Below are positions 36,723-46,395 of a stretch of 64,000 nucleotides of DNA, piece after piece. Source of the DNA: Escherichia phage iGC_PHA_EC001. Position 1 is the first letter of the stretch; each line of letters opens with the position of its first letter. A program made the position numbers and the translations under genes. The notes under the pieces are model-generated. The model made no database searches. It saw nothing but the letters and a program-made list of their open reading frames with translations, and was not told the origin of the DNA. The stretch lies in the sequence record OR437326.1. One strand, given 5' to 3'.

Positions 36723-37268
36723 ATGATATTTACAAACTTTAAAAAATATATTCCTGAAGATCCTGAACTAAAAGAATTGGTAGAAGCAAAGAACATTCTT
36801 TTTCTTCGTTGCGATCAAGGTTACGATTGGTATGATTTACGTAGCACAGAATTCAATAACGATAAAATGAAAGTCGTTTTTGATGATCAAAATCGTATTG
36901 TGTTTTGGAATACTGATCCTACACTACTTTGCCCTGAAGATCTTTCTATAGCACAAGTAGACTTTAATATAGATACTTTTGAGGATATTAGGAATAAGGT
37001 TCTGGATTTAGAAACCTTAACTCTTAAGGATAAAGAGTATTCCCGTGAAGAGTTGATGACACAAGCTAGTGCAAAAATTCGCTCTTTACAAGAAACAGCG
37101 GTAGCACTTATAACACCTTTACAGTATGCTAAAGATTTAGAAATGGCTACTGAAGACGAATTAGCTTATCTTAAAAATCTTCAAGTTTATGTGGTTAAAC
37201 TAAATCGTGTTCCGCTTCAAAAAGATTATCCTTACACTATAGATTGGCCTACATTACCGACGGAATAA
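36723..37268 (+). CDS. putative tail fibre assembly protein
   Basis: 181 aa directly downstream of fibre gene (ATGA overlap). Confidence 0.35.
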   Translation: MIFTNFKKYIPEDPELKELVEAKNILFLRCDQGYDWYDLRSTEFNNDKMKVVFDDQNRIVFWNTDPTLLCPEDLSIAQVDFNIDTFEDIRNKVLDLETLTLKDKEYSREELMTQASAKIRSLQETAVALITPLQYAKDLEMATEDELAYLKNLQVYVVKLNRVPLQKDYPYTIDWPTLPTE

Positions 37269-37277
37269 GGGATCACT

Positions 37278-37613
37278 ATGGAATTTCAAGAAGCATGGGG
37301 ACTTGCAAAGGATGCAATAATCCCTTTAATCGGAGTCATCTGGTTCTTTTTCAAACAAAAAATGGATAAATTCGGCTCTGATCTTGAGGAAATGGAGGAG
37401 AAAAGTCGAGAGCTAGAGAAGAAGTTGGTCTTTGTTGAATCAACTTATGCAACTAAAGCCGAACTTACCCAGATGCTAAATCAAATTAACTCTACATTAA
37501 TGGCAAATAATAACACCCTTGAGCAAAAAATTGAAAAGATTATGGACCTCAAGAATGCGACTATCCAAATGATGCTAGATGACATAGTTAAACGTACACA
37601 GAATAAGGGGTAA
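37278..37613 (+). CDS. small membrane-anchored coiled-coil protein (111 aa)
   Basis: N-terminal hydrophobic helix AIIPLIGVIWFFF followed by charged helical region. Confidence 0.4.
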   Translation: MEFQEAWGLAKDAIIPLIGVIWFFFKQKMDKFGSDLEEMEEKSRELEKKLVFVESTYATKAELTQMLNQINSTLMANNNTLEQKIEKIMDLKNATIQMMLDDIVKRTQNKG

Positions 37614-37616
37614 TTA

Positions 37617-40600
37617 ATGGCAACATTCCCAACATATCCAGCAACGTCTCTCGAACAGGGCGTAGATCTGGTTATTTTCTCATCTAACCAACTCCATGAT
37701 GTTATTAATGGAAGTGCTACAGAGAGTATTGAAACAGAATCAGGGTTGATACCAACCCTGAGAAAAGCCCTTGTTGACAACTTTTTCTTTAAAAGCCCAT
37801 TAGATTGGGCGCAAGGCACAAACGAAACAGTTTTTAACCAACTTCGTTATTTCCAGAATGGAGTATTGAGCGGTTATTACTATGCTCCTAACGCTACATT
37901 GGTTAACCCAATCCCTATGCAAGGGACTCCAGTAGGAGATAACAACTGGGTATTGTGGGGACTGAAAACAGAACAATTAGCAACAGAAGTCACCCCGTGG
38001 GTATACTCTGGTGCAACTGGTTATGAAACAGTAATTAGTCCTCCTTACATCTTTGATAGTGCTATTGTTACGATCAATGGTGTTATTCAGGTTCTGGGGG
38101 AAGCTTTCCGTATAGAAGACAGTAAGATCATCTTATCTGAACCTTTGGGACACGATCCTGCAACAGGACTGCCAAACAAGCTTTTTGCTTATATTGGTAA
38201 AATCGTAGCTTCAGCAGATACAGATCCTAATCTAGAGAACCGTCTTGTTAGTTTAGAAACAAAAACGGAAGAACTAACAGAAAGCATGGATAAAGTCCCT
38301 CTGCAAACTATTGCTCGTAAGTATGGTTTGTTAGATGATGAGGTGGCTTACGCAACAGCAGGTCAATCGTTAACAGGGATTAAAGCTCTGTATGATCCGG
38401 TAGCACAGTCTTCCTACACATTACCTCCTAACATCACAGGAACTTTAACATCCTTATCTGTTTCTGGAGTAATGACTTATTCTGGAGGATCTGTAGACCT
38501 TTCTGCACTGGCTGTTGAGCGTGGACAGTTTGTTCATTTGCCTACAAGCTTTGGTAATAACGTAACTCTGACAGCTAAAAATCAGACGATTGGACGTGGT
38601 GCTGGTCGTTATCGTTGGGCTGGAAGTTTACCAAAAAGTATTTTGGCCTCTGATACATTGGAGACAAGCGGAGGATTAGGTCCAAATGCATGGGTTCTGA
38701 CTAATACAGAAGGACTGTTAACCCCTCGTGGTGGAACATACAACGATCTATTCGATGTTGTCTACTTGTCAGAATTTGCTAACAATACAACTACCTATAC
38801 CACACCAGAAGCAGCTTTCCAGGCGGCACTGTTAGCAGCAAAAGCTTCGAAAAGCAAGATTCTCGATGCTTACGGTTGCGACATGACTTTCACGACAAGC
38901 TCTTTTGATATTCAAGATATCACTTTGCGTGGTGGTGTGTTCCGTGGTCAACGCGATTATCGTGTGCAGAATGCTACAATAGAAGGCACAACTTTCCGTA
39001 ACTCTCGTGTTATGTATTGGGGTGGTGCTGTGCGCATGTTCGATTGTTTGTGGGACGGTGCTCCTCGCGCAGGTCAAGTTGGTAGCTTGGTATTCCAAGG
39101 CAACCCAATATCAGGTACTTTTGAAATTGATAACTGTACTTTTAAAAACGGGTTGTATGGCATCCTTCAACAAGGAACAGGGGAACCAGTAACACGTGGT
39201 GTCTTCCGTAACCTTACCTTCATGGACATGCAAGGTGATGCAATAGAACTGAACGTCATCAATAAACATTATGACGATGGTTGTGTGATTGAGAATATTT
39301 ACCTGTCTAATATCGATGGGACTAACGCTCCTATTCCTCTGTCCAACTGGGGTATCGGTATCGGTATAGCTGGTAAAGGACCATATGGTTACGGAATCCC
39401 TGATGATCAATATTGCAAGAATATTACAATTCGTAACGTTTTTGCAAAACGTTGTCGTCAGATTGTCCACGTAGAAGTTGGTCGTAATATCTCTATCGAA
39501 AACATTCATGGCGATCCAGACCAGACCGTATCTGTTGGGACAGGTTTGGCAACTGGCGCAGTTGTAATGTATGGAAGTAAAGATTTTACGATTGACGGTG
39601 TTTACGGAGAGCCTAAAACAGACGGTAGCACACTTGCAAGTAATATCCGTATGATTTATTTGGAGTGGGGAACTAACGCAGTTCTGGACGAAGAGGGTAA
39701 TCCGGTAGTTCCGGCACAGGGTAGACCTTCAAACCCATGCTTTAACTATTCTGTTCGTAACATTCACACCAAAACTGGGCGTGTTTTTGCGGGAGTTTCC
39801 GCTGGGCCAGGTTATGAAAACAGAGTTAGCTTTGAAAATATTCGTTGCGCTGCATTGCAGTTGTTCGGTATAGCTTCTTGGCTTTCAATGTCTAACATCA
39901 CCTGTAATATCTTCGACTGTGTTGGTCAACCTGAATCTGGTCCAGGGACATTTTATGATGGATTCTTCCGTAGAGAAAAATCTGTTCTTGAAATGGTTAA
40001 CGTAAACTGTTACCCAGATGGCAAGACGATGGTTACTGGTCGTCCACAGTGGAGCCGTTGCCGTTACTCGGATATTCATCGTGTCAACTGTAATGTTGAA
40101 GCTAATATGTATACCAATATCGCAGGTGGTATTGGAGCTATTGTAGGGACAACGGGCAAAGTTTATTACTTAGAGCCTAATCCTAGTCGAAACATTGATG
40201 GAATGCATTTCCCAACAGGGAAAGAGTTTGACAAAGGTGATATGATAGTCAAGGCGGATAATACGTTCTTCCTTGTAACAACAAGTGGGGCATATATTCC
40301 AGATATCCCAGCTTTCGGTATTCGAGCTACACAGGCAGGAGATACCTTCCTGACACAGAACTTGACTCCTAACGGGACAGCAACAAATGCTTCTTGGTTG
40401 TATCATTACCCTCTGTCAGCAGGGACACGTATCCGTATTCCTGGTGCTGGCGTAGGTGGAGCAGATTTGGACACAGTTATTACTCGTGCACCTTATCAAG
40501 ATAATGATACGTGGACTAACCCAGTTAAAATAGACATTGCAGATCCAATTGTAACGCCTACAAGTGCTGGAGTTAGAATTAAAACCATACCTAATGATTC

Positions 40601-40670
40601 CAGTAATGTTTCTGTAGGTAATACTGCGGTTATTCGCCCAACGCCAGTAGTAGATGTGCCAACAACCTAA
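37617..40670 (+). CDS. large tailspike / receptor-binding protein with probable beta-helix (1017 aa)
   Basis: Repetitive beta-strand-rich central region (N/G/T/V-rich); contains the module shared with ORF 32988; terminator follows. Confidence 0.5.
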   Translation: MATFPTYPATSLEQGVDLVIFSSNQLHDVINGSATESIETESGLIPTLRKALVDNFFFKSPLDWAQGTNETVFNQLRYFQNGVLSGYYYAPNATLVNPIPMQGTPVGDNNWVLWGLKTEQLATEVTPWVYSGATGYETVISPPYIFDSAIVTINGVIQVLGEAFRIEDSKIILSEPLGHDPATGLPNKLFAYIGKIVASADTDPNLENRLVSLETKTEELTESMDKVPLQTIARKYGLLDDEVAYATAGQSLTGIKALYDPVAQSSYTLPPNITGTLTSLSVSGVMTYSGGSVDLSALAVERGQFVHLPTSFGNNVTLTAKNQTIGRGAGRYRWAGSLPKSILASDTLETSGGLGPNAWVLTNTEGLLTPRGGTYNDLFDVVYLSEFANNTTTYTTPEAAFQAALLAAKASKSKILDAYGCDMTFTTSSFDIQDITLRGGVFRGQRDYRVQNATIEGTTFRNSRVMYWGGAVRMFDCLWDGAPRAGQVGSLVFQGNPISGTFEIDNCTFKNGLYGILQQGTGEPVTRGVFRNLTFMDMQGDAIELNVINKHYDDGCVIENIYLSNIDGTNAPIPLSNWGIGIGIAGKGPYGYGIPDDQYCKNITIRNVFAKRCRQIVHVEVGRNISIENIHGDPDQTVSVGTGLATGAVVMYGSKDFTIDGVYGEPKTDGSTLASNIRMIYLEWGTNAVLDEEGNPVVPAQGRPSNPCFNYSVRNIHTKTGRVFAGVSAGPGYENRVSFENIRCAALQLFGIASWLSMSNITCNIFDCVGQPESGPGTFYDGFFRREKSVLEMVNVNCYPDGKTMVTGRPQWSRCRYSDIHRVNCNVEANMYTNIAGGIGAIVGTTGKVYYLEPNPSRNIDGMHFPTGKEFDKGDMIVKADNTFFLVTTSGAYIPDIPAFGIRATQAGDTFLTQNLTPNGTATNASWLYHYPLSAGTRIRIPGAGVGGADLDTVITRAPYQDNDTWTNPVKIDIADPIVTPTSAGVRIKTIPNDSSNVSVGNTAVIRPTPVVDVPTT

Positions 40671-40677
40671 TGGAATA

Positions 40678-40700
40678 GAGGGGGAATCCCCCTCTTCTTC
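40678..40700 (+). terminator. hairpin terminator after tailspike gene
   Basis: GAGGGGG-AAT-CCCCCTC followed by TTCTTCC. Confidence 0.5.
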
Positions 40701-40731
40701 CAATAGAATGGTCTAACGATAGGAGAGATAA

Positions 40732-42738
40732 ATGAATTTAACAAGACCTAATAGTGCGATAGCCGATCTGGTAGAAGCTACTTATCGAAAACGTCGCAGC
40801 TTTGAGGCAGGTTTTACATTACGTAATTCCCGTGAAGTGTTGCTGTTAGCAGCAGAAGGGAATTATTACCAATGGAAAGGAACTTTTCCTAAAGTAGTTC
40901 CAGCAAACTCTACGCCAGCCGCCACAGGTGGTATTTCTTCCCTTGCATGGCAAAGTGTTGGGACCGCTGATGATATAGCAATTATCAATGCCAAGTTTAC
41001 GGCAATGCAGCAACAAATTGATGATCTGTCGGAAACAATACCTGAAGCTGGTAAATCGGCTTATCAGATCGCACTTGATAATGGTTTTGTTGGAACAGAA
41101 GCACAATGGCTTGCCTCTTTGAAAGGGGATACTGGTGCTCAACTTAATATTAAAGGATCATTAGCAAGCACTAGTGAACTACCATCCACAGGTAACGTTG
41201 CAGGGGACGGTTATATCGTAGGCGATGTAATCTACGCTTGGGATGGTTCTGTTTGGAAACTTATTTCTTCTCTTGGGCCAGAAGGTAAATCAGCTTACGA
41301 GGTATGGTTGGCAGATGGTAATACAGGATCTGTTTATGATTTTCTTACCTCTATAAAAGGTGATAAAGGTGATGTTGGTCCTACAGGGCCACAGGGAGCA
41401 CCTGGTGTTAACGCCAACGGTTTTGATTATCGTGGGGATTTGCCTTCTACAAGTAACTTACCACAACCTAACTCGGAAAACGTAAGCCAAGCTTATTCTA
41501 TCAATGGTAATCTTTATGTCTCTAACGGGACAGCTTGGGTCAACATGGGTAATATTGTTGGTCCTCAAGGTCCACAAGGTGAGGCAGGTAAAGACGGTCT
41601 TGATGGAACAGATGGAGATGAAGGGAAATCTGCATATCAAAGTTGGCTGGATGCTGGTAATGAAGGGACAGAAGTAGATTTTATTGCCTCACTTAAAGGT
41701 CCAAAAGGAGACAAGGGTGATCAAGGAGAGCGAGGTCCACAAGGTGAACTAGGTCCACAAGGACCAGTGGGTGCAACAGGATCAGGCTTAGAGATTATCG
41801 GGGTTCTGAACAGTGAAGCTGAACTTCCTCCTACTGGAGAAGTAGGCGATGCATATAAAATTAATAATGATTTGTATGTTTGGGTTCAAGATGCTACGGA
41901 ATGGATGAATGTTGGCAGTCTTGGAGGAATATCAATTACAGCTAAAGGTCATGTTCCGAACAGTGAAGCTCTCCCTGTTTACAATAACTATGGTGATGCT
42001 TACTTAACTGAAGACACTAGTAATCTTTACATCTATACTTACGATCAAGACACCAATTCCGCATCTTTTGTTGACATGGGAAGTATTAAAGGTGACAAAG
42101 GTGAGAAGGGTGATCCTGGAACAAACGGAACCAACGGTACTGATGGGACCAACGGTAAGGACGGCGCACAGTGGTTTGTAGCAACAACTAATCCAGTCGC
42201 AGGAGACGGTGTTATCAATGATTACGCCTTCAATACTAACACTGGAGCAGTGTTTAAGAAAACAGATTCTTCTACGTGGACACTTATAGGAACTCTTCCT
42301 AGTATACCAGAAGCCCCTCAAGATGGCTTGACGTATGGTCGTTCTGATGGAAACTGGATCGAAATATCAGGATCAGACCCTACAGAAGCTATAACACCGA
42401 CTAGAGTTACAGCAGGTTTCATGGAACTTGAAACAACTACTGCCAACTCTGGAGCATCTTGGACTCCTTCTGGAACTTCCAATATGTATGTTGTTACAGT
42501 AACTGACGCTCTGACAGTTGGAGCATGGCCTGGTGTCACTGGCTCTACAAAACCTAAAGCGTTTTCAGCAATGATTTATTTGATTCAAGATACAACGGGA
42601 CACACGGTTACACTAGATGCGTCTTATGGAGCACTAAATGATACAGAAATAGCAACTACTGCTAACGCAGTAACAATTTTGCAATTAACGTATCCTGGTG
42701 TGGGTGATATCGTGGACATGGTTGTTGTAACACGATAG
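40732..42738 (+). CDS. tail fibre protein with phage-fibre repeats and collagen-like Gly-X-Y tracts
   Basis: Three copies of GKSAY..L..G..G....F..S.KG repeat, each followed by Gly-X-Y runs (KGDKGDVGPTGPQGAPG; GPQGPQGEAGKDG; KGPKGDKGDQGERGPQGELGPQGPVG; KGDKGEKGDPGTNGTNGTDGTNGKDG). Confidence 0.6.
   Translation: MNLTRPNSAIADLVEATYRKRRSFEAGFTLRNSREVLLLAAEGNYYQWKGTFPKVVPANSTPAATGGISSLAWQSVGTADDIAIINAKFTAMQQQIDDLSETIPEAGKSAYQIALDNGFVGTEAQWLASLKGDTGAQLNIKGSLASTSELPSTGNVAGDGYIVGDVIYAWDGSVWKLISSLGPEGKSAYEVWLADGNTGSVYDFLTSIKGDKGDVGPTGPQGAPGVNANGFDYRGDLPSTSNLPQPNSENVSQAYSINGNLYVSNGTAWVNMGNIVGPQGPQGEAGKDGLDGTDGDEGKSAYQSWLDAGNEGTEVDFIASLKGPKGDKGDQGERGPQGELGPQGPVGATGSGLEIIGVLNSEAELPPTGEVGDAYKINNDLYVWVQDATEWMNVGSLGGISITAKGHVPNSEALPVYNNYGDAYLTEDTSNLYIYTYDQDTNSASFVDMGSIKGDKGEKGDPGTNGTNGTDGTNGKDGAQWFVATTNPVAGDGVINDYAFNTNTGAVFKKTDSSTWTLIGTLPSIPEAPQDGLTYGRSDGNWIEISGSDPTEAITPTRVTAGFMELETTTANSGASWTPSGTSNMYVVTVTDALTVGAWPGVTGSTKPKAFSAMIYLIQDTTGHTVTLDASYGALNDTEIATTANAVTILQLTYPGVGDIVDMVVVTR
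41355..42165 (+). repeat. collagen-like Gly-X-Y coding repeats within fibre gene
   Basis: Four separate Gly-X-Y tracts seen directly in translation. Confidence 0.6.
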
Positions 42739-42741
42739 CAG

Positions 42742-42766
42742 AAGCCCCGAAAGGGGCTTTCTTTTT
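42742..42766 (+). terminator. intrinsic terminator after fibre gene
   Basis: AAGCCCC-GAAA-GGGGCTT followed by TCTTTTTAT. Confidence 0.65.
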
Positions 42767-42779
42767 ATGGAGGGTTTAA

Positions 42780-43814
42780 ATGTTTCCAATTCCAATATTT
42801 ACTATTATGACCAGCACTGGTGTCGTTCCTCTGCCAGCAGGTATTGTTAAAAAAGTAATCACTTTAGATTACCCAGATAATGCTGGTAATTCTAACAGCA
42901 GTTTAGCAATTTTGCTTAATGATGGTAGATTGTTCACTCAAGGCGCAAACCTTTTTGGTGAGATTGCAGATGGAACTCGTAGTGCACGATTCAATAATTT
43001 CCACTTGGCTTCTACTGTAGCAGCGGATGTGTTTACCGCAGATCGTTGTTTTGTTATTAAAACTAACAGTGGGGGATGGCAATATTCAGGATTGACAGCA
43101 GGGTTGGTAGGATCTATAGCAGCAGGTGGTACGGACGCATGTGTAACTACTTGGACCAGCTTTCCATCTGTAATAACAGGGACTATCTCTTTAGCCAATC
43201 TTAAAGAGGTTAAGGGAGGATATAACAACACTCTCTGGTTAATGAATAGTGGTGTTCTTTACGGATCTGGTCAAAACACAGTAGGCAGTTTAGGTGCAAG
43301 TAATACTAACGAAGTTTCTACTCCTCGTCAGATAACAAGTGCAGCAGTTGCTTTTGATGCAGGTTACAACCAATGCTCTTATGTCAACAATGTGGGAACC
43401 TTGCGTGTTTGTGGAGCTAGTAAAGGCTTAGCAGGTAATAATAACACAACAACAGCTTTTGTCAATGCCAAGATATCCGCTACTGAAACAGTGTATGTCA
43501 AAGATTACATCAATACGGTTTCCCAGACAATAGTTGTAGGAGATACCTCCGGTGGCACGGGTACAGTAAACTACTTATATGTTAGATCTAATACAGAAAC
43601 AACCTACACTAAACTGGATACCTTTGCAGCAGGTTTCTCAACATGGAAGTTTCCACCAAGCCGCCACTCTTTTTTCGTTGGGATCAATAATTCCTTGTGG
43701 GCTATTGGTAAGAACTACACTGCAAACTTAGGTTTGGGGTATGATTCTGCGAGCGGAGATCCACTCCAAGTGGAAAACCAGTTAAACCTGAAGGAGTGGG
43801 TTCCTGGGATATAA
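42780..43814 (+). CDS. RCC1-repeat-like beta-propeller protein (putative receptor-binding protein)
   Basis: Several repeats resembling RCC1 blades (LLNDGRLFTQGANLFGEIADGT; LWLMNSGVLYGSGQNTVGSLGASNT; NNVGTLRVCGASKGLAGNNNTT). Confidence 0.4.
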   Translation: MFPIPIFTIMTSTGVVPLPAGIVKKVITLDYPDNAGNSNSSLAILLNDGRLFTQGANLFGEIADGTRSARFNNFHLASTVAADVFTADRCFVIKTNSGGWQYSGLTAGLVGSIAAGGTDACVTTWTSFPSVITGTISLANLKEVKGGYNNTLWLMNSGVLYGSGQNTVGSLGASNTNEVSTPRQITSAAVAFDAGYNQCSYVNNVGTLRVCGASKGLAGNNNTTTAFVNAKISATETVYVKDYINTVSQTIVVGDTSGGTGTVNYLYVRSNTETTYTKLDTFAAGFSTWKFPPSRHSFFVGINNSLWAIGKNYTANLGLGYDSASGDPLQVENQLNLKEWVPGI

Positions 43815-45451
43815 ACAAGCTCACAAGCGTTCATACGCTGAATATGGATGTTACTAACCAATTAGGTTATCAAGGAACCTTTTTCGTTTATAATGGAGAT
43901 ATGTATTATTCCGGTATTTGGAAAGATGGGAAAGCCTCGTATCTGTTCAATAGTGGTCTAAACTATAATAAATTCACACCAATAGCAAGCTCCGTGATTA
44001 CGGGTGATATTCTGGCAACTGGTTTAACTACAGATTCTTTAGGAATTTGTATTGTAGGTGGAACTAAACAGTTGACACATTCTGTTAGCCCAGAAGGAGG
44101 TAAACTTTTCAATATTAAATACACTTCTTCTGCCCCTGCAAACATGACAATATCATCTACTGGTTTAATGACTTTCCATGCAGAAGGTGGTTTTGATGCA
44201 GGTATGACAGCCTTAAACGCTGAAGGAACAACTTTATCAGATACCTCTGGAGGATATGCTTCAACATTGAGTGTTTACACCCCTAGCTTATCTGCGATGG
44301 ATGTAGGAACAACACAAACAATGGTAGCAGAAATAACGCCAACAGGAGCAGCAAGCTTACCTGGTATGGTTGTTGAGTATACAACTACAGATCCTAATGT
44401 TGCTACAGTAGATCCTACAACTGGTGTAATAACTGGTGTTGGTGATGGTGGTTGTAGAATTGGTTGCACAGCTACGTATCAAGGTGTTGTTACCGCTTCT
44501 GATAGTTCTTATTTAACGGTGAACGCTGTTGCGGGAAAGGAGTTAGCTCCATCTCCGAGTAGTAGTTTAACGGTTCTAAACGGATATTTCAACCACTCGG
44601 CAGATGGGGCAATCACGTTCCCAATTTTATCGGGTACTGTCACACCAGCTAACTTTGTAGTTAAGGTGGATGACGTTGTAATACCTTCAAATAAAGTAAT
44701 ATTTAGAAATAAAGCTTTCTCTACAGTGGATAGTTATCCAGCAGGAGAATATAGACTGGCTATTGAATTTGCAAGTGCTTCGGTAGTGAATAGTGTTGAT
44801 GTGTCTATGGAAGCAAATCCAGATCTTTTAGAATTATGGGGCGGCAACAGAATTGGTTATTCTACAAGCCCAGCCTCACAATTCTTAAAAGGTTGTGCTA
44901 ACTTAAGACGAATAACTTCTGATTGTTTTAGTAACACATCTTACACCGGAACATCTATAAGTGGTATCTTCTCTGGCTGTACAAGTTTGACAGCTATCCC
45001 TGAAGGATTATTCAGTGATGCTTTATTTCCTTCAATGACAACAATGTCAAGCACGTTTGAAGGTTGTACATCTTTAACATCTATTCCTTCAGATTTATTT
45101 AAGAATCTATCAAAAGTTACAAGATATTCTTACACCTTTAAAGATTGCACCTCTCTTGCAGAAGTTCCAGCAGGAATGTTTGATAATATTCCAACGAAAG
45201 TGACCTCCTTAACAGCTACATTCCAAGGTTGTTTAGCACTTACAGATTTTAATAAAATCTTTAATGACAATCCAGGGTTAACTGTTTGTGGTAAACGTGG
45301 AGCATTATCTTCTTTCTTTAGTGGATGCACAAATCTTACAGGAACAGGAACAACATTAACAAATACATTAGGCGGAGTAGCTAATAGTTACCTATTCAGG
45401 TATTGCACAAAACTTTCTGATTATAATAATATTCCTTCGGGTTATAAATAA
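43796..45451 (+). CDS. Ig-like (Big_2-type) plus BspA-type leucine-rich-repeat protein; start uncertain
   Basis: Segment TTDPNVATVDPTTGVITGVGDGG is Big_2-like; C-terminal repeats of F.GCTSLT.IP..LF type; track start is a GTG embedded in AAGGAG, so the true start may be downstream or the gene may be frameshift-coupled to 42780. Confidence 0.4.
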   Translation: MGSWDINKLTSVHTLNMDVTNQLGYQGTFFVYNGDMYYSGIWKDGKASYLFNSGLNYNKFTPIASSVITGDILATGLTTDSLGICIVGGTKQLTHSVSPEGGKLFNIKYTSSAPANMTISSTGLMTFHAEGGFDAGMTALNAEGTTLSDTSGGYASTLSVYTPSLSAMDVGTTQTMVAEITPTGAASLPGMVVEYTTTDPNVATVDPTTGVITGVGDGGCRIGCTATYQGVVTASDSSYLTVNAVAGKELAPSPSSSLTVLNGYFNHSADGAITFPILSGTVTPANFVVKVDDVVIPSNKVIFRNKAFSTVDSYPAGEYRLAIEFASASVVNSVDVSMEANPDLLELWGGNRIGYSTSPASQFLKGCANLRRITSDCFSNTSYTGTSISGIFSGCTSLTAIPEGLFSDALFPSMTTMSSTFEGCTSLTSIPSDLFKNLSKVTRYSYTFKDCTSLAEVPAGMFDNIPTKVTSLTATFQGCLALTDFNKIFNDNPGLTVCGKRGALSSFFSGCTNLTGTGTTLTNTLGGVANSYLFRYCTKLSDYNNIPSGYK

Positions 45452-45485
45452 GAAAAGGAGCCATTTGGCTCCTTTCTTTTATAAA
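45451..45485. terminator. bidirectional intrinsic terminator between convergent modules
   Basis: AAAGGAGCC-ATTT-GGCTCCTTT flanked by A-run upstream and T-run downstream. Confidence 0.7.
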
Positions 45486-45507
45486 AACTCTTTATAAATC
45501 AATAAGA

Positions 45508-46395
45508 TCAGAACGGAATATCATCGTCGAAGTCCATTGGAGGTTCTTCTTGATTACTTGGAGTTGGTTCTGGTTGTGGTTCAGGCTTCTTAACTTCTTT
45601 CTTCTCTTCTTTCTTAGGTTGTTCTACGGAACCACGAATGGCAGCAGCAACTTTATCAGACAGAGCCAGAACTTTACGAGCAGAGTCAATCAGATCTTCT
45701 ACAGATACAGTTTTAATGGTATGGTCTTTACAAGCATTGAGAATAGCGTGACCAACAGATGCCCCAAGATCATAATCATTAATATCAACGCCACGAGATT
45801 CAGCAATTTCAGATTTCAGCGTGACAGTTGCAGATTGAACAACCCCAGCGATATCGAAAGCATCGCCTTTAACACCATTACGAATCAGTTCCAGTGCACC
45901 ATTTACTGCGTGACCAGTTTCCAGACCTACAGTATCACGTTTTTTATAGGACTGCTTAGGAGCAGCATCGTTGGAACCTTTATTGCCAGAAGATTTGTTA
46001 GACTTCTGAACACCATCGGTAGACAATACTGTAATACGAGATTTTTTAGTATTGTAGTAAGTCTTACCGCCTTTATTATCAACGCGATCAATATCAATAC
46101 TTACTTCTACACCTTTTTCAATAGTGATCCAATTATCACCTTCTTTGACTTGCAGGTTTTCATAACCTTCTTTCAGTTCAATGTCACCAAGAGAAATCCA
46201 AACACCTTTCTCATCTGGTTTAGCACCTTTCTCTTTCAGAACAAGAGAAGCTCGGTGAGTTGAAACAATCGTTTTTCCTTCCCAATGAAAAGTTTTAGGT
46301 TCAGCGAATTTATCCAGTTTAACGTAGTCTACGATACCAGTTGCATAAGTTACGGTTTTGCCTTTACGATCAGTTTCAGTATTAATTACGGACAT
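45508..46395 (-). CDS. single-stranded DNA-binding protein with E. coli SSB-type C-terminal tip
   Basis: C-terminus ...PSNQEEPPMDFDDDIPF is almost identical to the E. coli SSB tail; N-terminal beta-rich region consistent with an OB fold. Confidence 0.6.
   Translation of the reverse strand: MSVINTETDRKGKTVTYATGIVDYVKLDKFAEPKTFHWEGKTIVSTHRASLVLKEKGAKPDEKGVWISLGDIELKEGYENLQVKEGDNWITIEKGVEVSIDIDRVDNKGGKTYYNTKKSRITVLSTDGVQKSNKSSGNKGSNDAAPKQSYKKRDTVGLETGHAVNGALELIRNGVKGDAFDIAGVVQSATVTLKSEIAESRGVDINDYDLGASVGHAILNACKDHTIKTVSVEDLIDSARKVLALSDKVAAAIRGSVEQPKKEEKKEVKKPEPQPEPTPSNQEEPPMDFDDDIPF

Follow-up and report, generated by a model that had tools for sequence, protein, structure and literature searches.

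Collagen-like tracts in the tail fibres of coliphages and prophages were characterised in 2012 (PMC3368898). In EPclA-D, the collagen-like tail-fibre proteins of Escherichia coli O157:H7 prophages, the Col, coiled-coil and C-terminal domains each trimerise (PMC3368898), and the lengths of the Col domains differ in multiples of three (Ghosh et al. 2012, PMC3368898). Here we describe a tail-fibre gene with Gly-X-Y tracts, located on the plus strand at 40732..42738 of a stretch of 64,000 nucleotides (nt) from Escherichia phage iGC_PHA_EC001 (sequence record OR437326.1), which is referred to below as the window. Its orthologs phAPEC8_00179 (gp179, AFU62750.1) and phi92 gene 151 (gp151, YP_009012483.1) occupy the corresponding locus and have their modules in the same order, and the window protein is 99% identical to phAPEC8 gp179 and 62% identical to phi92 gp151. 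Other orthologs already bear names that reflect the collagen-like sequence, namely 'collagen triple helix repeat protein' (P3322), 'lateral tail fiber protein with type I collagen domain' (EmilieFrey and BME3) and, for one member of the protein cluster, 'collagen-like protein'. Neither the gene, nor its resemblance to collagen, nor the fact that fibre collagens of coliphages differ in length by triplets is new. The interpretation that we hold with considerable confidence is that the product is a lateral tail-fibre protein of a phAPEC8-like E. coli myophage (Phapecoctavirus), building a homotrimeric, segmented fibre in which the Gly-X-Y tracts are spacers that change by whole triplets in the manner of slippage.

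Identity and architecture of the fibre protein

The gene is an intact open reading frame (ORF) of 668 amino acids (aa) plus stop, and its product is identical, residue for residue, to WMI32686.1, the 'tail fiber protein' of Escherichia phage iGC_PHA_EC001. The match to phrog_15437 ('tail fiber protein'; E = 0) extends over residues 1-668 and profile positions 1-655 of 656. A nucleotide search yielded matches in 70 phage records; the best 40 of the 70 show 96.5-98.6% nucleotide identity and nearly all belong to Phapecoctavirus (phAPEC8-like, Stephanstirmvirinae), with ASO2A (98.6%) the closest among the listed matches. The gene occupies a slot between a colanic-acid-degrading (colanidase) tailspike upstream and a large RCC1/Ig-domain tail protein downstream, and this synteny is kept in phAPEC8, ASO2A, ukendt, phiWec190, phi92 and PHB05. 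By full-length homology and locus position, the ORF is a member of the Stephanstirmvirinae lateral tail-fibre ortholog group. Relatives were drawn from the GenBank phage collection and the protein database in place of IMG/VR, where a scan for related loci returned a single truncated locus.

The modules of the protein, listed below with the evidence for each, were delineated by sequence searches, alignments and structure predictions from two AlphaFold 2 (AF2) monomer jobs, for which confidence is given as the predicted local distance difference test (pLDDT).

40732..42738, plus strand: tail-fibre gene (ORF, phrog_15437, GenBank identity, synteny)
40765..40962, plus strand: Tail_spike_N, aa 12-77, the N-terminal anchor (Pfam PF18668, E = 2.8e-19, 69.4 bits against a cut-off of 25)
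40975..41037, plus strand: single long helix, aa 82-102 (AF2 secondary structure)
41050..41127, plus strand: GKSAY repeat 1, aa 107-132, helix-turn-helix (helices 110-116 and 123-130), followed by two Gly-X-Y triplets only, GDTGAQ (alignment, AF2)
41143..41283, plus strand: beta module 1, aa 138-184, four strands, pLDDT 82-91 (alignment, AF2)
41284..41358, plus strand: GKSAY repeat 2, aa 185-209 (alignment, AF2)
41359..41412, plus strand: tract 1, 6 triplets, aa 210-227 (same length in every ortholog examined)
41413..41559, plus strand: beta module 2, aa 228-276 (alignment, AF2)
41560-41631, plus strand: tract 2, 8 triplets (7 plus the GKS of repeat 3), aa 277-300; without GKS, 41560..41622 and aa 277-297 (5-11 triplets among orthologs)
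41623..41697, plus strand: GKSAY repeat 3, aa 298-322 (alignment, AF2)
41698..41787, plus strand: tract 3, 10 triplets, aa 323-352 (8-10 among orthologs)
41788..42090, plus strand: beta modules 3 (aa 353-399) and 4 (aa 400-453), pLDDT ~90 (alignment, AF2)
42091..42171, plus strand: tract 4, 9 triplets, aa 454-480 (the main length-variable segment)
42172..42300, plus strand: beta module 5, aa 481-523, a divergent copy (alignment, AF2)
42301..42369, plus strand: foldon-like beta hairpin IPEAPQDGLTYGRSDGNWIEIS, aa 524-546 (phmmer, Foldseek, ortholog conservation)
42421..42735, plus strand: beta-sandwich knob, aa 564-668, the last ~105 residues, pLDDT ~90 (AF2, Foldseek, sequence homology)

The Gly-X-Y tracts are far from what would be expected by chance: among 5000 composition-preserving shuffles of the protein, a run of at least 5 triplets appeared in 105, a run of 8 was reached once and a run of 10 never, whereas the real protein has four such tracts. 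The earlier note on this DNA, which was made from the sequence, had placed runs of 5 to 10 triplets in nt 41355-42165, and this was essentially right, the tracts being 6, 8, 10 and 9 triplets long. Three stretches match the Pfam Collagen family PF01391 (E = 8e-11, 42 bits against a cut-off of 27.2), and the protein belongs, by sequence, with the PF01391 collagen repeat proteins; NCBIfam yielded only sub-threshold matches to collagen adhesins, which are caused by the Gly-X-Y pattern. The tracts are short, charge-rich and Pro-poor, with P, D, T and E in X and Q, K, D and N in Y, a composition that fits the profile of viral collagens (PMC3368898). In the AF2 monomer, the low-confidence segments (pLDDT below 50) coincide exactly with the four tracts. 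Sequences that fold solely as a trimer are expected to behave in this way, and the values are uninformative on the triple helix itself.

The GKSAY…KG repeats start at aa 107, 185 and 298 (nt 41050, 41284 and 41623). The earlier note had given their length as ~30 aa and had each of them lead into a Gly-X-Y run. Three real repeats exist, each of 26 aa from G to KG, with 13 columns invariant across the three copies and each modelled as two short helices; repeats 2 and 3 do run directly into tracts, whereas repeat 1 is followed by two triplets only. Tract 2, rather than following a repeat, runs into repeat 3, and tract 4 comes after a beta module. These units are not the phage-fibre repeats of Pfam: they match neither PF03406 (Phage_fiber_2) nor PF03335 (Phage_fiber), whether the whole protein (E <= 0.1) or the isolated repeats (E <= 10) are searched. 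PF03335 is a 14-aa repeat, as opposed to the 26-aa GKSAY unit, and identification of GKSAY with the Pfam 'phage tail fibre repeat' was rejected when the positive control, lambda Stf, showed PF03406 on an unrelated motif, KGIVQLSSATNSTSETLAATPKAVK. No Pfam family matched the isolated GKSAY repeats or beta modules. The GKSAY unit is a fibre-associated repeat without a family in the Pfam library that was searched, and annotators should be cautious not to equate it with the Pfam phage-fibre repeats.

Beyond the tracts and the repeats, the anatomy sketched in the earlier note had overlooked the Tail_spike_N domain, five beta modules, the foldon-like hairpin and the C-terminal knob. By both profile and structure, the protein carries a Tail_spike_N anchor: it is modelled with pLDDT ~90, it has phmmer matches among PDB sequences (9vvr, 5w6h, 4oj5 and 4qnl) and Foldseek matches with probability 1.0 (4qnl, 6nw9 and 4oj5), and the solved homologs are all tailspike or tail-fibre proteins (CBA120 TSP1, TSP3 and TSP4, and G7C gp63.1, 4qnl). 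The single helix at aa 82-102 that follows the anchor in the model probably forms a short trimeric coiled coil. The five beta modules, of ~45 aa and four strands each, align to the pattern L.s..eLP..G..GDaY…lYvW…W..vG and are modelled with pLDDT ~90.

The hairpin at aa 524-546 has the motif and the fold of a foldon (..PEAP.DG..Y.R.DG.W..). It shares 14 of 22 residues with the T4 fibritin foldon, and the motif residues are invariant in the aligned orthologs. A phmmer search of PDB sequences gave 420 matches at E <= 1, of which the 60 listed, apart from 9cuy_g, are fibritin or foldon-tagged chains that align with the hairpin (best E = 8e-5). In Foldseek, the predicted hairpin superimposes on T4 fibritin (3j2o/2bsg) over 25 columns with a root-mean-square deviation (rmsd) of 1.2 A and on the foldon-tagged haemagglutinin 8t1g_F over 21 columns with an rmsd of 0.4 A, at probabilities of 0.89-0.96.

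In sequence, the knob, which we presume to be the receptor-binding tip, has homologs in the C-termini of rV5-like lateral tail fibres and of the tail fibre of phiTE (9cuy_g, E = 4e-11). Its Foldseek match is the Pa223 capsid spike (9ny6_C, E = 2.9e-4), and the same similarity has been reported for gp151 in the phi92 cryo-electron microscopy (cryo-EM) paper (PMC13450770). There is no solved structure of the knob domain: phiTE 9cuy matches in sequence and was considered as a template, and it was rejected because, in the paper, the fibres are modelled at their N-terminal residues only.

Length variation in the tracts and a model of the fibre

The window protein was aligned with 11 orthologs from phage genomes (12 sequences in total), and the number of triplets per tract was counted in about 55 orthologs, some of them metagenomic cluster representatives or members of clusters. 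Every full-length ortholog has three GKSAY-type repeats, four tracts and five beta modules, always in the same order. The tracts themselves differ: tract 1 is always 6 triplets long, tract 2 comprises 5-11 and tract 3 8-10 triplets, and tract 4 ranges from 4 to 13, with one ortholog lacking any run of at least 4. The earlier note had anticipated that related isolates would not be identical in repeat architecture, and this is borne out by the tract lengths; the copy number of the GKSAY repeats and other modules, for which the note had suggested a comparison among relatives, turned out to be fixed. Apart from the EP57 deletion considered below and two single-residue gaps in the C-terminal region, the internal indels that the alignment shows lie in tracts 2-4 and have lengths, in aa, divisible by three. 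Roughly counted, the tracts, which make up 14% of the protein, account for at least 7 of about 9 such internal events (binomial p about 3e-5).

Tract 4 differs in length even between close relatives. Within the cluster of >90% identity, tract 4 has 11 triplets in nearly all members, 10 in ASO2A and 9 in the window, which lacks KGDKGD compared to the common 674-aa form (phAPEC8-type). Among 58 database relatives that are >90% identical in this segment, 57 have 11 triplets, one has 10 and none has the 9 of the window. In the phi92-like phages, where tract 4 of phi92 itself has 6 triplets, a separate extra KGE triplet distinguishes proteins of 656 aa from those of 653 aa (7 compared to 6 triplets). 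The DNA of tract 4 in phAPEC8 reads AAAGGTGAA-AAAGGGGAT-AAAGGGGAT-AAGGGTGAT; the window lacks the middle two 9-nt units (18 nt) and ASO2A lacks one GGAACNAAC unit (9 nt). Both deletions fall inside the following arrays:

42088..42137, plus strand: imperfect 9-nt tandem arrays, (AAAGGTGAC)x2.9 at 42088-42113 and (GGAACAAAC)x2.2 at 42118-42137 (Tandem Repeats Finder)

Such arrays are the likely substrates of triplet gain and loss. Exact losses of 9-nt units within arrays of 9-nt units are what slippage would produce, and, judging from this sequence context, unit-wise gain and loss of triplets is the best explanation of the length differences.

The length of the tracts varies, but rarely, and the locus is not of the hypermutable, contingency type, because the repeats in the window exist in only 2-3 imperfect copies, 57 of the 58 close relatives share one tract-4 length and the proteins in the clusters are nearly all either 674 or 653 aa long (the modal length is found in 12 of the 13 full-length members listed for one cluster and in 13 of the 15 listed for the other). 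The proposal that length varies by slippage in the collagen-like tracts is thus upheld in that whole triplets change within 9-nt arrays, and qualified in that such changes are rare among close relatives; this rarity also speaks against describing the region as a hotspot of fibre-length change. At the DNA level, GKSAY copies and beta-module copies share almost no identity, the best match being 14 nt at 93% between GKSAY units, and no long inter-module DNA repeats that could drive changes in module number were found within the gene. The near absence of DNA identity between module copies, which leaves almost none that could drive unequal crossing-over, fits the frozen module number.

The 9-triplet allele of the window could, in principle, be an artefact of sequencing or assembly, with no real length polymorphism behind it. 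This allele is found in one named isolate only and in none of the 58 close relatives in the phage collection, a 1-nt homopolymer frameshift in the next gene hints at an imperfect consensus, and other records contain suspicious repeat-linked changes (the 76-nt duplication of SKA64 and the deletions of EP57). However, the deletion is in frame and spans exactly two 9-nt units, and an 18-nt change in a 45-nt array lies well inside read length, making assembly collapse unlikely. Furthermore, the same 668-aa sequence also comes from a Logan assembly, and comparable single-triplet changes occur in the independent genomes of ASO2A, PHB05 and P0138 (13 contigs). We therefore regard an artefact as very improbable.

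Over longer evolutionary distances, the same building blocks are recombined freely. The 120 best homologs contain 0-16 SAY-type repeats and 2-14 tracts, with single tracts of up to 55 triplets, and homologous segments are found in tail proteins of phages of Actinobacteria and Firmicutes and of crAss-like phages.

Three sets of records depart from the common form in other ways. In ukendt and WPEC4, tract 3 and beta module 3 (aa 323-399) are 57-63% identical to the window, compared to 92-100% for other segments and 82% for tract 4, the latter value being due to the two-triplet gap; this patch indicates recombination with an allele that has diverged, and its breakpoints coincide with module boundaries. 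Escherichia phage SKA64 (OM362897.1) carries, at positions 695-770 of the locus, an exact 76-nt tandem duplication over GKSAY repeat 1 that shifts the reading frame of the fibre gene, and only a shortened fibre coding sequence (CDS) is annotated in the record; this could be either an inactivating mutation or an assembly artefact. In vB_EcoM_EP57 (OR544956.1, locus positions 1548-3086), an in-frame deletion of 486 nt begins where GKSAY repeat 3 ends and stops with the last of tract 4, leaving a product of 512 aa, and no obvious microhomology is present at the deletion junction. The flanking colanidase and tail-protein genes of EP57 are also much shorter and its genome, at 130.7 kb, is ~20 kb short, so we did not count this record as a module loss.

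Taken together, these observations can be arranged into a simple model of the fibre. Under this model, Tail_spike_N would dock the fibre on the multi-fibre adsorption apparatus of the phage and would be followed by the short coiled coil, by a shaft composed of the three helix-turn-helix GKSAY repeats, the four Gly-X-Y tracts and the five beta modules, and, at the C-terminal end, by the foldon-like hairpin and then the beta-sandwich knob that would contact the host surface. Three chains would be kept in register mainly by the foldon-like hairpin and the knob, with the coiled coil and the beta modules contributing. The earlier note had remarked that collagen-like segments in phage fibres can mediate trimerisation; we infer that it is here more probably due to these other elements than to runs of 6-10 triplets. 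Chains held in register would let the tracts zip into triple helices that serve as thin spacers, ~28 nm in total. The 9-nt arrays would occasionally gain or lose whole triplets, either by slippage during replication or by recombination between short repeats, which would preserve the Gly register and shift the length of the fibre by ~0.9 nm per triplet. The window allele would be a rare one, with tract 4 two triplets shorter than in the common 674-aa form. The domain content, the positions of the tracts and the location and size of the indels among relatives are direct observations, as is the identity of the gene; the trimeric state, the triple helices, the slippage mechanism and the receptor-binding role of the knob are what the model adds to them.

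Several points weigh against this interpretation. The single phmmer matches to the foldon are modest (E = 8e-5 to 0.08), as could be expected for a motif of only 22 aa, and Pfam Fibritin_C (PF07921) does not match the C-terminal 192 aa even at E <= 10, although relatives, P0017 among them, do match this family. The triple helix in the tracts is predicted from sequence alone, and slippage is deduced from the repeat context of two events, in arrays that are short and imperfect. The closest structural match to the shaft and knob is a capsid spike rather than a tail fibre. Finally, the authors of the BASEL study state that the assignment of genes to the individual lateral fibres is unclear (PMC8594841), and in the cryo-EM study of phi92 (2026) the predicted gp151 could not be fitted into any fibre density and its function is called uncharacterised (PMC13450770).

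Some of the same points could be taken to mean that the protein is an appendage of the head or neck, either a capsid spike or a fibritin-like whisker, serving reversible adhesion or sensing, and not a baseplate fibre. Apart from the resemblance to the Pa223 capsid spike and the misfit between the gp151 prediction and the fibre densities of phi92, the source of the foldon motif, T4 fibritin, is a neck whisker protein, and the phi92 annotation mentions an N-terminal 'potential capsid binding domain'. Conversely, the protein begins with Tail_spike_N, whose solved homologs all come from tailspikes and tail fibres, the gene resides within the tail-fibre cluster with a tailspike on one side and a tail protein on the other, and the knob is common to the tail fibres of phiTE and the rV5-like phages. 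A head or neck location consequently appears unlikely to us, and we retain the lateral tail fibre as the preferred assignment.

Host range, the neighbouring gene and flanking features

We found nothing that links tract length to host range. The most ambitious form of such a link would be a switch of host range or fibre length, with the tracts as a fast-mutating hot spot and the number of triplets selected for host reach or adsorption. In its favour, tract 4 differs even between very close relatives (9, 10 and 11 triplets, and 6 compared to 7 in phi92-like phages), the subfamily spans 5-11 triplets in tract 2 and from fewer than 4 to 13 in tract 4, and the DNA of tract 4 is a 9-nt tandem repeat. 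However, close relatives and cluster members nearly all share one length, and the 2-3 imperfect copies in the window, or about 5 in phAPEC8, are unlike classical contingency repeats. The collagen helix rises by ~0.29 nm per residue, so that losing two triplets makes the fibre roughly 1.7 nm shorter, a small change for a fibre that is tens of nm long. Moreover, the putative receptor-binding knob is the same across the length variants (the knob, foldon and linker are 100% identical in the window, phAPEC8 and ukendt), same-length alleles come, according to host records, from phages of very different E. coli strains, and the clear allelic exchange is located in the neighbouring gene. These findings leave the earlier suggestion of host-range variation through the tracts unsupported, and a switch of this kind seems to us most improbable. 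The BASEL study has described the lateral-fibre locus as mostly conserved (PMC8594841).

A related, speculative idea is that the number of triplets in tract 4 (tract 2 elsewhere) is an adaptive setting of 'reach', in which slippage in the 9-nt arrays matches the distance between the foldon-registered knob and the baseplate to the thickness of the capsule or O-antigen. If this were so, the 9-triplet allele of the window would be a host-adapted variant and not neutral drift; we consider this doubtful and prefer to view the tracts as spacers that change occasionally. For the mining of phage genomes, the negative result is itself of use: the length of the collagen-like tracts changes rarely here and shows no tie to host range that we could find.

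A better candidate for a determinant of host range than the collagen-like fibre, to judge from sequence comparison, appears to be an allelic swap of the C-terminal domain of the neighbouring gene. In the window, this gene is split into 42780..43814 (344 aa) and 43796..45451 (551 aa), as opposed to a single CDS of 891 aa in phAPEC8; the intact gene is about the same length in ASO2A and ukendt. The split results from a 1-nt deletion in a G run near 43772 (phAPEC8 AAGTGGGAAAACC, window AAGTGGAAAACC), which could be either a genuine frameshift or an error in sequencing. Over its first 245 aa, the second ORF is 96% identical to the phAPEC8 ortholog, whereas the C-terminus is unrelated to that of phAPEC8. 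Two unrelated C-terminal thirds of this gene thus exist in the population, the form of the window being present in 35 phage records and phAPEC8 having the other. The C-terminal ~305 aa (about 44535-45451) gave only weak Pfam hints of BspA-type leucine-rich repeats or DUF285.

Close copies of the fibre gene also occur in records named as phages of Campylobacter, Acinetobacter, Pseudomonas (PsgM04F) and Klebsiella (ZCKP1) and as 'Dompiswa phage', with identities of 91-97% for most and about 71-81% for PsgM04F. The odd host labels may be due to contamination with coliphages or to host ranges of unusual breadth.

The tailspike upstream of the fibre gene (37617-40670, 1017 aa, colanic-acid-degrading) has an internal Tail_spike_N at aa 302-361, and the ~300 aa before it match other fibre families. 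This arrangement suggests that the tailspike may itself be a branched or adaptor-type spike on which other fibres might dock.

The signals that flank the fibre gene are the following:

40677..40695, plus strand: putative terminator, a G+C-rich hairpin AGAGGGGGAATCCCCCTCT and then TCTT, 3' of the colanidase tailspike stop codon (read from sequence)
40721..40727, plus strand: ribosome-binding site AGGAGAG, 4 nt 5' of the ATG (read from sequence)
42741..42768, plus strand: intrinsic-terminator-like hairpin GAAGCCCCGAAAGGGGCTTT followed by CTTTTTAT (T tract), with the hairpin proper at 42741-42760 (scan and sequence)

The hairpin at 40677..40695 would, as a putative terminator, separate the colanidase tailspike gene from the fibre gene. 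The ASO2A record annotates a rho-independent terminator at the equivalent place; our own terminator scan did not call this hairpin because its T tract is short. At the place equivalent to 42741..42768, terminators are annotated in both phAPEC8 and ASO2A, and the phi92 record annotates AGGAG ahead of the ortholog. An Rfam scan of 37000-46000 on both strands gave no match, and antisense ORFs of 60-105 aa within the fibre gene were disregarded as lacking support.

Comparison with known systems

Beyond annotation, the finding concerning the fibre matters little, given that GenBank already lists both the gene and its collagen-like domain, under several names. What the analysis offers is a residue-level map of modules, including an internal foldon-like hairpin and a Pa223-like knob, for a fibre that the phi92 cryo-EM and BASEL papers left unplaced. 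Compared to its nearest described counterparts, the fibre of the window has 9 triplets in tract 4, as opposed to 11 in phAPEC8 and 6 in phi92, in which tracts 2 and 3 are also shorter.

Like EPclA-D, the protein alternates Gly-X-Y tracts with non-collagenous fibre domains and has the charge-rich, Pro-poor composition of viral collagens. Unlike in EPclA-D, however, the flanking domains PfN, Pf2 (PF03406), PCoil and PfC are absent, with nothing in the window fibre matching them, and the one or two long Col domains of 100-320 aa contrast with the four short tracts seen here.

The capsid spike of Pa223, gp52 (9ny6), is the best structural match, both for the shaft of beta modules (E = 1.6e-4) and for the knob (E = 2.9e-4). 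It forms a homotrimer that combines a triple beta-helix with a knob of the TNF fold (bioRxiv 10.1101/2025.06.11.659172). In contrast to the window fibre, gp52 decorates the capsid, has neither collagen-like tracts nor GKSAY repeats and is attached by another N-terminal domain; sequence identity between the two is about 15% and the TM-scores are low. The N-terminal Tail_spike_N is shared with CBA120 TSP1, TSP3 and TSP4 and with G7C gp63.1, but these proteins continue as the bodies of enzymatic beta-helix tailspikes, whereas the window protein continues as a non-enzymatic, segmented fibre.

The combination of a short collagen-like stalk with a trimeric jelly-roll knob that sets its register from the C-terminus is known from Bacillus BclA, the C1q-family collagens and P5 of PRD1. 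The resemblance of the window fibre to these proteins is architectural only, none of them having appeared in the PDB-sequence or Foldseek results.

When a foldon is fused to collagen sequences by design, it sets the register of the triple helix and nucleates it. The window fibre resembles the T4 fibritin foldon and the collagen-foldon fusions (PDB 1nay and 9gfr) in that a 22-residue hairpin, IPEAP.DG..Y.R.DG.W, lies C-terminal to Gly-X-Y tracts. Unlike in T4 fibritin, the motif is internal, with a 120-aa knob after it, is below the threshold of Pfam Fibritin_C and is not accompanied by a long coiled coil. A point related to the doubtful idea of an adaptive reach is that, if it were correct, this family of fibres would represent natural foldon-nucleated mini-collagens, a design that protein engineers have built artificially.

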